A stretch of 64,000 nucleotides of DNA, from contig JAGXKT010000002.1 of the NCBI GenBank assembly GCA_018335035.1, positions 53,106-117,105 on the forward strand. The letters run 5' to 3'. The notes beneath the pieces are model-generated. The model worked only from the letters and a program-made list of their open reading frames with translations. It had not been told where the DNA came from and did no database searches. Of the stretch, positions 61,499 through 64,000 are shown in pieces. Both the position numbers and the translations under genes were made by a program. Position 1 is the first letter of the stretch; each line of letters starts with the position of its first letter. Origin of the DNA: Phycisphaerae bacterium (lineage in GTDB: Bacteria > Planctomycetota > Phycisphaerae > SM23-33).

Positions 61499-64000
61499 TT
61501 ACTCGATGCGCATCGCCTCCATCGGGGCCAGGCGAGCGGCCACCCAGGCGGGGTACACCGCCGCCAGTGCCGATATCACCACGCCGATGACAAAGGACAG
61601 CCCGGCCGTGGCCAGAAGGTCCACCGCCGGCAACTGCTGCAACGCCGTCGTGCCGTATTGAAGCGCGGTTCGCAAGATGCCCAGAACCAGTCCAAGCACC
61701 AGGCCGATGATGCTGCCGGCGACCCCTTGCAGGCACGATTCCAGCACGAAGTTAATCATGATGAACCCGTCCGTGGCACCGAGGCACTTCATCGTGGCGA
61801 TTTCGCGGAATCGTTCGGTGACGCTCATCAGCATCGCGTTGGCGATTCCCACGACGCAGACGATGAAGCTGACGACCAGCAGCCAGATCGTGCGTGCCGA
61901 GAAGCCCATGAAGCCCGTTTTGACCGTCAGGGCGGAGACCTCGGCCTCCGTCTCGGCCAGTTCGCGTGCGGCCAATTGCCGCTCGGCGACCTGTTCGACC
62001 CGCTCGGCGGTCAGGCCCAACGGCTTCAGCGAGGCGACTTTGCCGAGCAGGTCGTTGACCCACTCCGCCTCGGCTTTGTCCGTCGCGACACGCATCAGCG
62101 CATCGGCGGTGACATCGTCTTCGGACAGGTCGTTCCTGTGCTTGGCCAGCTCCTCGCGCAGCAACGGAGCCGTCACGAGCGTGCGCAGGCGCTCGGCGTC
62201 GCGCTTGAGCCCGACGTGTTCCTGTATCTTCCGGAGGTCCTTGTCGCCCATGTGAAATTCGGCGCGAGCCAGGGCGGCCTGTGCCTTCTCGTCGGCGGCC
62301 GCCAGCAGGTCCACGGGCGAACGCTCGGCAAGCAGCGCCGGTTCATCGGACGCGGCATCGCCCCGCAGGGCGGCGATGGCTTCGGCATGGCCGGCTGCAA
62401 TACGCGCGTGCAGTGCCGGCGCGCGGCGGCGATCGTCGAGGTAGTGCTCGAACAGCCGATACCCCGCCTCCTGCGGTACCGCCGCGCCGAGCCACCTCTC
62501 GGCGAAGCGTACGTGTTGCGCCATCCAGCCGGGCAGCGGCAGTGTCACGCCCTGCTCGCGCAGGGCCTCGCGCAGCGCGGCGGCGGGATCGGCGGCCGGG
62601 AACGCACCGTAGTTGTCCAGGTGTTGTTCGGGCGTCATGGACGCGAGAAAATCCAGATAGCTTTGCGTCCGCGCCGGCAGCTTGACGAGCAAGGTCATCT
62701 GCGCGTCGGTCAATTCGCCCCAGTTCCGGTATTCGCGGCGTTCAGCGTCGCCCAACGATCCGGACGTGAACCGCTCGGCGACCTGGTCGGCCGTGAGCGG
62801 CTTGCAAAGCCGCAGTATCCAACGGCGGAACGTTTTCGCCGTGTCGGTGGCGGGGGGAGTGTCCGGGAGCATCTCGAAAAGAATCTGCCCCGGCTCGACG
62901 GTGTCGCCCTCGGCCGCGTGCCAGGAGATGATCGTCCCCTTGCTCATCGTGTTGACCTTGGTCATGACGACGGGCACGACGTTCTCGGGCCGAGCGGCTT
63001 GCCGCGCCGCGTCCGCCTCGAGTGACTCGAGGTACGCCTCGACGCCGGCGTCACTCTCGCTCAGGTAGGCGACCGGCTCATGGACGGCGACGGTCTGTCC
63101 GGCGCCGGCGACGATCTTCGCCAGTCGCCCGCGCCGTGCGGCTTCGACCGTAACGGCGGCCTTGTCCGTCTCGGTCAGGGCGGCCTGGTGAATCCGCTCG
63201 GTGGAGAGGGACGCGCCGCCAAGGCCGCGCGCCTTGTCGGTCAAGGAAACAAGCCAGTCGGCGCCGCTCGACGAACTGACCTCCTCCAGTAGCGACCGGG
63301 CGTTGACCTCGTGCGGTTCGATATTGCGCCGCTCAGCGAGCCGTGCCTTGAGCAGAGACGAGTTTAACGCCGCTTCGATCCGCTGGGCGTCGTGGGCGTA
63401 AGCGGCCTCGCGCTGCACCGTCTGCAGGTCTTCCCGCTGGATGCGGAAGCCCACCGCGTCGGCCGACAGCGCCGCGTGCAGCGCGTCGGCATCCGTCGTG
63501 GCCAGAACATCGAGCGGCTCGCGCTCATGGAGAAGCCGGCCGGGCTGGTTGAGCGTTTCGATGGCCTCGGCGTGTCCGGCGATGACGCGTTCGCGCCACG
63601 CGCGGGTGGTCCACCAGTCGCGGAGGAAGCCCTCAAAGGCGTCGAGCGACGTCGGCAGCGGCTTGCCGATCTCGGAGAGGTAGTCCGTCATCCGTTTCAG
63701 CGCGTCCTCGTTGAGCCGCGCGGTGTCGGCGTCGGACGCCTCGTGATCGATCAGGGCGCCGAACATGCGCGGTCCGCTGTGCCGGGTTCCGTTCAGGGCG
63801 CGGCGGCGGCGGGCCTCGGTCATCTGCGTGAAGAACGTCAGGTACGTCTGCTGGCGACGGGCGACATCGTGCAACTGCCCGAGCTGCTCGTCGTTCAGTT
63901 CCGCCCAGGCGCGCATCTCGTTCCAGCGCGGCCCGCCGCGCTCGGCACGGGCGATCGTGCCGCTCAATTCCGCCAGGTTCGGCGGTTCGGCGAGCCGGCC
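61499..64000 (-). CDS. FtsX/MacB-like ABC permease with duplicated extracytoplasmic domain and permuted lipoyl module; 5'-truncated by the window edge
   Basis: Frame is open to base 64000. C-terminal GIANAMLMSVTERFREIATMKCLGA...LES...YPAWVAARLAPMEAMR; internal ETDKA and GTIISW..EGDTVEPG. Confidence 0.85.
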   Translation of the reverse strand, partial: GRLAEPPNLAELSGTIARAERGGPRWNEMRAWAELNDEQLGQLHDVARRQQTYLTFFTQMTEARRRRALNGTRHSGPRMFGALIDHEASDADTARLNEDALKRMTDYLSEIGKPLPTSLDAFEGFLRDWWTTRAWRERVIAGHAEAIETLNQPGRLLHEREPLDVLATTDADALHAALSADAVGFRIQREDLQTVQREAAYAHDAQRIEAALNSSLLKARLAERRNIEPHEVNARSLLEEVSSSSGADWLVSLTDKARGLGGASLSTERIHQAALTETDKAAVTVEAARRGRLAKIVAGAGQTVAVHEPVAYLSESDAGVEAYLESLEADAARQAARPENVVPVVMTKVNTMSKGTIISWHAAEGDTVEPGQILFEMLPDTPPATDTAKTFRRWILRLCKPLTADQVAERFTSGSLGDAERREYRNWGELTDAQMTLLVKLPARTQSYLDFLASMTPEQHLDNYGAFPAADPAAALREALREQGVTLPLPGWMAQHVRFAERWLGAAVPQEAGYRLFEHYLDDRRRAPALHARIAAGHAEAIAALRGDAASDEPALLAERSPVDLLAAADEKAQAALARAEFHMGDKDLRKIQEHVGLKRDAERLRTLVTAPLLREELAKHRNDLSEDDVTADALMRVATDKAEAEWVNDLLGKVASLKPLGLTAERVEQVAERQLAARELAETEAEVSALTVKTGFMGFSARTIWLLVVSFIVCVVGIANAMLMSVTERFREIATMKCLGATDGFIMINFVLESCLQGVAGSIIGLVLGLVLGILRTALQYGTTALQQLPAVDLLATAGLSFVIGVVISALAAVYPAWVAARLAPMEAMRIE

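Follow-up and report, generated by a model that had tools for sequence, protein, structure and literature searches.

A lipoyl-domain piece with its halves in reversed order in the extracytoplasmic loop of an FtsX/MacB-type ABC permease from a Phycisphaerae bacterium

Results

The permease gene and the lipoyl piece within it

The window analysed in this work is a stretch of 64,000 nucleotides (nt) from a Phycisphaerae bacterium (GenBank assembly GCA_018335035.1, contig JAGXKT010000002.1, positions 53,106 to 117,105). At its end, on the minus strand, lies a gene for an FtsX/MacB-type ABC permease, P0001. The large loop between transmembrane segments 1 and 2 (TM1 and TM2) of this protein contains a piece homologous to the lipoyl domains of pyruvate-dehydrogenase-type (PDH-type) E2 proteins, with the two halves of the domain in reversed order. 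An earlier note, written from the sequence alone, had drawn attention to this piece. The features of the permease gene are listed below (aa, amino acids; E, expectation value; HMM, hidden Markov model).

61499..64000, minus strand: FtsX/MacB-type ABC permease P0001, full length 910 aa; aa 78-910 and the stop codon lie in the window (PF02687, E 8.7e-17)
63179..64000, minus strand: helical repeat 1 of the extracytoplasmic loop, aa 71-351, in the window from aa 78 (match to repeat 2; all-alpha model)
63167..63172, minus strand: hexamer GAGACG (Glu354-Thr355) at the N-terminal junction, common to host orthologs (GAGACG or GAGACC) and donor-type E2
63062..63172, minus strand: C-terminal lipoyl half, placed first, aa 354-390 (ETDKA...PVAYL); clade HMM positions 41-79, 50.4 bits
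63161..63163, minus strand: putative relic lipoyl-lysine codon, Lys357 (from sequence order)
62981..63061, minus strand: acidic/Ala linker, aa 391-417, homologous to the E2 post-lipoyl segment (D..V.AYL) and shorter than E2 linkers
62870..62980, minus strand: N-terminal lipoyl half, placed second, aa 418-454 (VVPVVM...ILFEM); clade HMM positions 2-40, 40.4 bits
62837..62869, minus strand: spacer at the C-terminal junction, aa 455-465 (LPDTPPATDTA), holding a degenerate copy of the junction hexamer
61985..62836, minus strand: helical repeat 2 of the loop, aa 466-749 (match to repeat 1; model)
61529..61882, minus strand: FtsX transmembrane domain, TM2-TM4, aa 784-901 (PF02687; all 22 invariant family columns present)

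The P0001 open reading frame (ORF) overruns the window; its start codon lies about 231 nt past the window end, and the N-terminus was taken from the genome sequence. The protein has four hydrophobic segments (aa 28-56, 773-806, 828-859 and 867-902), with a loop of about 700 residues after the first, and the TERFREIATMKCLGA coupling region sits after TM2. With this FtsX-type four-TM unit and a partner ATPase, P0001 has the architecture of the MacB/LolCE/FtsX class (type VII ABC permeases). In MacB-family permeases the large TM1-TM2 domain is described as periplasmic (PMC5985334). The first 30 residues of P0001 contain 8 Lys or Arg against 2 Asp or Glu. From the TM1-TM2 position, the family topology and the positive-inside rule, the loop is extracytoplasmic, as the earlier note had predicted for the lipoyl piece.

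The loop is internally duplicated: aa 71-351 match aa 466-749 with 28% identity (E 4e-15). In a full-length AlphaFold2 (AF2) model of P0001, with a mean predicted local distance difference test score (pLDDT) of 85.8 and a predicted template modelling score (pTM) of 0.73, both repeats are all-alpha, with pLDDT above 90 in repeat 1, and the hydrophobic segments are modelled as helices. This model used a family-only alignment (A3) with no rows over the insert and is therefore uninformative on the insert itself. The all-alpha loop domain matched no Pfam family, and PF12704 (MacB_PCD, the Porter/Sabre domain) gave no Pfam match in P0001 at E <= 1. Foldseek with the full-length model returned only weak matches, to LolC/E, MacB and FtsX (best E 0.037), all through the membrane part, and left the helical repeats unmatched. 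The nearest homologs of P0001 carry source labels of Planctomycetota or of proteins from Phycisphaerae metagenome-assembled genomes.

The halves of the lipoyl domain are in reversed order

The lipoyl core, from ETDKAAV to ILFEM, corresponds to aa 354-454 of P0001 (window 62870-63172, minus strand). The motifs, strand and lysine codon (63161-63163) first read from the letters were found where they had been placed. The Pfam profile Biotin_lipoyl (PF00364) matched the piece with E 4.2e-9 and 36.5 bits (cut-off 22.1), in two stretches. These do not follow one another as N-half and C-half: the C-half (profile positions 37-73) precedes the N-half. When the piece was compared by phmmer with PDB sequences, the N-half fell on residues 31-71 and the C-half on residues 72-130 of one and the same domain in the E2 protein 6zlm_A, and the halves are therefore in swapped order.

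We then used a clade lipoyl profile built from 37 native-order lipoyl domains, taken from the E2 loci of 23 relatives. In its actual order the piece matched HMM positions 41-79 at 50.4 bits and then positions 2-40 at 40.4 bits; its score against the clade profile was 89.5 bits. Re-ordering the halves gave a single match over positions 2-79 at 108.2 bits, against a best score of 5.1 bits among 200 shuffles; the native domains, which are also the training set of the profile, scored 121-148 bits. Swapping the halves had been proposed as the check on the claim of a reverse order, and the claim stood.

The piece is colinear with residues 128-254 of the di-lipoyl protein 8x03_A (phmmer), that is, from one ETDKA to the next. 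It is likewise colinear with the stretch from the second to the third lipoyl domain (L2 to L3) of the genome's own E2, a 700-aa protein with three lipoyl domains encoded on contig C20 (54% identity), and with 34 lysine-turn-to-lysine-turn segments from 22 of the 23 E2 loci of relatives. Strings typical of the E2s of this bacterial order, GRLA[KR]IVA, PVAYL and D.V.AYL, are present in the insert. This colinearity bears out the proposal that the piece was cut from a tandem-lipoyl E2 between consecutive lysine turns.

All matches of the piece to the Pfam families of periplasmic adaptors were under their cut-offs (HlyD_D23, 15.2 against 30; HlyD_3, 16.6 against 22.2; Biotin_lipoyl_2, 11.8 against 29.8). 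We also considered, and rejected, an arrangement in which a pair of lipoyl domains is interrupted by helical sequence as in adaptors, each with its partner half at an end of the loop. Neither Pfam nor the clade profile found further lipoyl halves elsewhere in P0001; TM1 passes directly into repeat 1 and repeat 2 into the TM2 stalk, and the insert-free orthologs share those ends.

The insert is present in contigs of other samples

Three sequencing runs contain this stretch, all from one study, and one of them (X1) may be the source of the assembly. In a second sample (X2), a contig covering 62400-63204 spans the whole insert and both junctions with 0 differences from the window, and in a third (X3) a contig covering 63031-63476 bridges the N-terminal junction. 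The junction contigs from these two samples differ from the window at 0 to 1 positions. The contig gaps (62736-63029 and 63492-63575 in X3, 63205-63231 in X2) carry no evidential weight. X2 and X3 share two single-base differences from the window in repeat 1 (63341 C>G and 63602 G>A) and none within the insert, which indicates a closely related strain variant that likewise bears the insert. No insert-free joint was reported in the X2 and X3 contigs; since contigs drop rare variants, a minority insert-free allele could escape such a comparison.

One explanation of the piece would be an assembly chimera of permease and E2 reads. The genome is a draft of 82 contigs, and the common study behind the three runs also leaves room for this. 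However, the insert is in frame at both ends, the host sequence resumes at exactly the same point, and the insert shares no more than about 70-72% DNA identity with the E2 gene of its own genome. Its GC content and GC content at third codon positions (GC3) are 0.686 and 0.881, against 0.692 and 0.879 in repeat 1. Because separately assembled contigs of two further samples contain it, the insert is not such a chimera, an explanation that we regard as extremely improbable. The junction check that the earlier note had called for, carried out here with contigs of other samples, thus found real junctions.

The insert lies between two helical repeats and is restricted to one species

In the AF2 host model the insert sits exactly between the repeats, from the last helix of repeat 1 to the first helix of repeat 2. 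In the orthologous permeases of two same-genus genomes (P0002 in G001 and P0003 in G002) both repeats are present and abut, reading ...QAALTET, then 4-8 residues, then F..W..RL. The spacer at aa 455-465 probably contains the remains of this host linker.

No lipoyl signal was found in any of 170 other permeases of the family (best E 0.19), nor in the orthologs of G018 and G005; the earlier note had asked whether orthologous permeases share the insert, and none of these, nor those of G001 and G002, carries it. A 35%-identity match of the G018 ortholog reaches some 30 residues into the insert. It was rejected as a lipoyl match, the ortholog scoring -1.4 bits against the lipoyl profile, and in our reading the overlap is an Ala-rich continuation into the stalk that follows the repeat in this family. 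A word-indexed comparison of the insert with a set of 5.8 billion proteins gave 30 matches among 4273 candidates: the query itself and 29 E2s. The E2 catalytic domain PF00198 was present in 28 of the latter; the remaining one (P0199) has PF00364 only and is named E2 by its source. None of the 29 has an FtsX domain and P0001 is the sole FtsX protein recovered, a negative that is weak evidence in a search of this kind.

As the insert is missing from G001, G002 and all other family proteins examined, a single gain on the branch of this species is the parsimonious reading. The insert could instead be as old as the genus or older, with precise losses in the relatives. This view would agree with the variable length of the family loop and with the equal distance of the piece from many E2s, which an old copy might show. 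It would require at least two independent precise deletions (in G001 and G002) in addition to the absence from all 170 family proteins, and we hold it to be very improbable.

Loop length varies greatly across the permease family (proteins of 231-956 aa, with a mode near 490), so the insertion site appears to be permissive. The helical loop domain is tandemly duplicated in the genus (proteins of 804-910 aa), while most family members are about 490 aa long with a single copy; P0004 (956 aa) and P0009 have other large loop insertions. With the duplication in the genus and these further insertions, the loop appears to be a hot spot of insertion and duplication.

A short sequence is shared between host and E2 at the N-terminal junction. 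Donor-type E2 has GAGACG right before GACAAG, the same hexamer that stands at Glu354-Thr355 of P0001, and a degenerate second copy, GACACT (Asp-Thr), occurs in the spacer at the C-terminal boundary. A GAGAC(G/C) microhomology at the junction is therefore possible.

The insert is a diverged copy of E2 sequence

Over 74 structured positions, the genome's own E2 and the E2 of G002 are 89% identical to each other, and the insert is 60.8% (about 61%) identical to each of them. A donor tree was computed from 15 rows, the insert and those 14 of the 34 E2 segments that start with ETDK; the other 20 were left out as truncated or as having their C-half from a lysine-less first domain. The terminal branch of the insert was 0.8, against a median of 0.16. 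The tree places the insert on a long branch within an open polytomy and so names no individual donor; the donor would be an E2 of this bacterial order, and most simply the lineage's own. The insert has evolved several-fold faster than the E2 domains, by a factor of about five. Synonymous sites are likely saturated, with about 70% DNA identity and GC3 near 0.88.

Of the 38 E2 columns with a conservation of at least 60%, 27 have the identical residue in the insert and 5 a similar one. All 16 hydrophobic columns hold identical or similar residues, and the three invariant Trp, Gly and Gly positions are kept. Six conserved residues have been lost: two prolines of the linker and, in the MP..G.MEEG motif, four positions through P76T, E82S, E83K and the deletion of one Gly. 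A kept core with lost E2-specific residues is the pattern expected if foldability matters and E2 function does not.

The E2s of this order have a peculiarity of their own. In the multi-lipoyl PDH-type E2s (L006:427-2529, minus strand, which is contig C20 of the genome studied here, G000; and L014-L034), the first lipoyl domain is usually without the acceptor lysine, ETDKA being replaced by strings such as ...RAADAEV..., QTERDLIHV or ETEDSF. The second and third domains keep the lysine and are near-identical to each other within one genome. This suggests that the leading domain is degenerate and presumably non-lipoylated.

Predicted folding and the fate of the lysine

We sought to model the insert as a separate domain. 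For a piece of 121 aa, AF2 with an alignment of the 34 colinear E2 segments gave a pLDDT of 76.9, a pTM of 0.47 and four short strands only. The C-half had a pLDDT of 82-94 and the N-half of 72-83, and a helix was predicted at aa 394-412. The model was without a recognisable lipoyl fold, and a structural alignment over both halves was not obtained. The lipoyl fold is described as having two-fold pseudo-symmetry, with two interlocking four-strand motifs (PMC4446572), and because of this pseudo-symmetry a closed permutant would be expected to align over both halves.

This result would suit a second view of the piece: the same insertion origin, with the inserted segment not a folded domain but a tolerated flexible spacer made of two orphan half-barrels and a helix. 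Several points speak against it. The 16 of 16 hydrophobic columns and 3 of 3 Trp/Gly/Gly positions have been kept after about 40% divergence, and half-barrels lying open in the periplasm would tend to aggregate. The AF2 alignment was drawn from proteins whose two halves sit in different domains, and this may have biased the model against packing the halves together. When the halves were docked as two chains, the score was 0.43, whereas the best of 3 controls scored 0.00, with at least 91% contact agreement between runs and a partner pLDDT of at least 75. The pass mark of this test is reached by 58 of 80 solved complexes and by 2 of 110 mismatched pairs, counts that are rough for the present case, where our own alignment was used. 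Solved lipoyl domains exist, and the network may owe the pass to having learned them. The pass is a weak one because passing scores of 0.60 or below belong to only 7 of the 80 true complexes and to both passing mismatches. Taken together, these points leave the unfolded spacer doubtful.

A combined alignment (A2) of 67 permeases and 21 E2 segments was also prepared and discarded before folding, as MAFFT set the E2 rows away from the insert. In placement trials the E2 rows were correctly placed in 32 of 34 cases with 3 permeases and in 0 of 34 with 10 or 25, and an anchor row of the insert was no help. We put the odds that the insert packs into one permuted lipoyl-like barrel at roughly even, or slightly better.

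Lipoylation depends on the exact placement of the lysine in its turn. Lys357 is retained in the insert, yet the strand that normally precedes it (ILFEM) lies 97 residues downstream, and sequence order makes the former lysine beta-hairpin the point at which the chain enters from repeat 1. As it is no longer at a hairpin tip, Lys357 appears to be a relic. The insert would also be beyond the reach of the cytoplasmic lipoylation enzymes, because it is exported with the loop. Lys357 is thus probably not lipoylated.

Neighbouring genes

Two genes follow the permease on the same strand.

60629..61492, minus strand: LolD/MacB-type ABC ATPase, directly downstream of the permease (PF00005, E 4e-30)
55057..60636, minus strand: 1859-aa protein with an FtsX domain and an M28-like region (Pfam)

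The top NCBIfam matches of the ATPase are LolD, the MacB nucleotide-binding domain and FtsE, each under its equivalog cut-off. The gene start of the 1859-aa protein overlaps the end of the ATPase gene. The N-terminus of this protein resembles a signal sequence or lipobox, and its FtsX domain is C-terminal; it also contains a Peptidase_M28-like region (E 2.1e-5) and extended stretches of coiled-coil character. It may be a second permease subunit of the same transporter, in a LolCDE-like heteromer.

Further downstream, all on the minus strand, are genes for an ATP:guanido phosphotransferase (50670-52136; PF00217, E 4.8e-64), for another ABC ATPase (52303-53031) and for a protein of 673 aa that weakly matches the OPT oligopeptide transporters (53039-55060). 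Upstream of the permease and just past the window end, beside the transporter operon, is a 268-aa ORF (L001:2748-3554, minus strand) whose C-terminus matches PqqD (PF05402, E 5.7e-10). PqqD is a peptide-chaperone domain of the type that recognises ribosomally synthesized and post-translationally modified peptides.

Discussion

Origin of the insert

The above findings can be brought together in the following model. A fragment of a multi-lipoyl PDH-type E2 gene, cut between the lysine turns of two successive lipoyl domains, would have been inserted in frame into the permease gene, landing in the short linker that joins the two helical repeats of the TM1-TM2 loop. The order of C-half, linker and N-half then follows from an excerpt offset by half a domain. 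The event would be a permutation-by-duplication in which the natural tandem lipoyl array served as the duplicated intermediate, as in swaposin, and it would have happened on the branch of this species, after its split from the sequenced congeners. For the recombination itself we infer template switching guided by the GAGAC(G/C) microhomology, by which consecutive E2 repeats were entered and left. Afterwards, E2-specific surface residues would have been lost and the hydrophobic and glycine core kept. The two halves probably pack as a lipoyl-like barrel, with the chain ends leaving at the former lysine turn. As a whole, a young insertion of an E2 excerpt, tolerated as a passenger at a permissive inter-domain linker and probably folded as a barrel, has in our estimate a probability of roughly 0.7.

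Several observations weigh against this model. The microhomology is 6 nt only; the second copy agrees with it in 4 of the 6 positions and is preceded by two additional codons. The insert is 66.2% identical to the E2 of G038, a member of another family, so that the genome's own E2 (60.8%) is no closer, and with the insert in an open polytomy of the donor tree a foreign donor from the same order may have been involved. Conservative single-base changes alone would be expected to retain core residues to some degree, and selection on the insert is unmeasurable because it has no orthologs. Only two congeners could be compared, one of them 63% complete.

A further possibility is that the permuted module has gained a function in the transporter: docking of a partner (the 1859-aa FtsX protein or an outer-membrane component), clamping of the repeats, or dimer contacts of the kind made by the lipoyl ring of periplasmic adaptors. 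The adaptor lipoyl domain, which is opened at the same loop, is described as aiding assembly (PMC4446572). The insert has moreover been kept through about 40% divergence with its core intact, and no separate HlyD-type adaptor was found among the 7 neighbouring ORFs scanned. On the other hand, the insert occurs in one species and the same-genus orthologous permeases do without it, no partner was identified, its HlyD_D23 and HlyD_3 matches are under cut-off, and in what PMC5985334 describes of the MacA-MacB system, the lipoyl domain of MacA makes no contact with MacB. We consider a gained function distinctly unlikely. The built-in adaptor or docking role that the earlier note had suggested was not borne out, the insert being confined to one species and its MacA counterpart not touching MacB. 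A folded permutant at work outside the cytoplasm, hung from its opened lysine turn between the helical lobes as a clamp or docking knob, seems unlikely to us. For transporter biology the insert probably has little consequence, with one species concerned and no sign of a transport role, and a tolerated passenger remains the reading that we prefer. Were it folded and functional, it would be a datable case of domain birth by permutation-by-duplication in bacteria, caught in the act.

Comparison with known systems

In full-text literature searches, judged in part by their result listings, we came across no account of an E2-type lipoyl domain that is permuted, nor of any lipoyl domain located in an FtsX-type permease. 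Like the type VII permeases MacB, LolC/E, FtsX and HrtB, P0001 has a four-TM unit, a large TM1-TM2 loop and an adjacent LolD/MacB-type ATPase; unlike those with the Porter/Sabre domain MacB_PCD, its loop is all-alpha and duplicated in the genus.

With the lipoyl domains of E2 (PF00364) the insert shares homology in both halves, the ETDKA motif and the clade-specific strings. It differs in the reversed order of the halves, the lack of an E3-binding or catalytic domain, the extracytoplasmic location and the shorter linker. Its MP..G.MEEG motif is lost (Pro to Thr, Gly deleted, Glu-Glu to Ser-Lys), and its lysine is off the hairpin tip.

The MacA/AcrA/HlyD adaptors are described as having a lipoyl-type beta-sandwich in the periplasm that is opened at the loop corresponding to the E2 lysine loop, with other structure attached there (PMC4446572), and in this respect they resemble the insert. 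However, the adaptors are separate, ancient and conserved proteins without the lysine, and they keep the order N-half, hairpin, C-half. In the insert the C-half comes before the N-half, the linker joins what were the native termini, and it is at the opened loop that the two helical domains of the host are attached. The HlyD-family layout, in which lipoyl halves flank an alpha-hairpin and a beta-barrel and membrane-proximal domains are present, was not found in P0001. The lipoyl/barrel-sandwich fold may thus tolerate opening at the lysine turn in a second wiring, inverse to that of the adaptors, and, if true, this would be useful to engineers who employ lipoyl or biotinyl domains as insertion modules.

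The HABAS/barrel-sandwich-hybrid inserts of the RNA polymerase beta-prime subunit, as described in PMC11515920, belong to the same broad fold class and are lineage-specific, with topologies related by circular permutation. They differ from the permease insert in being old, conserved within lineages and not derived from E2, whereas the permease insert would be a recent E2 copy.

As a rule, circular permutation has to be inferred from pairs that are old and have diverged far. In the present case a single genus offers the donor array (a multi-lipoyl E2), orthologs without the insert and the permuted product, and for this reason the route of permutation-by-duplication is directly readable, possibly even to a microhomology of 6 nt. 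The insert is probably a clean evolutionary snapshot and not a new mechanism, and its closest precedent is swaposin, the saposin with swapped halves that forms the plant-specific insert of plant aspartic proteinases and is described as an offset excerpt of a tandem saposin array that arose by permutation-by-duplication (PMC3320104). In both cases an insert of about 100 residues with swapped halves, excerpted from a tandem array, lies in an unrelated host. The two differ in fold, four-helix saposin against beta barrel-sandwich lipoyl, and in age and standing: swaposin is plant-wide and functional, whereas the permease insert is found in one species, and its fold and any function are putative.

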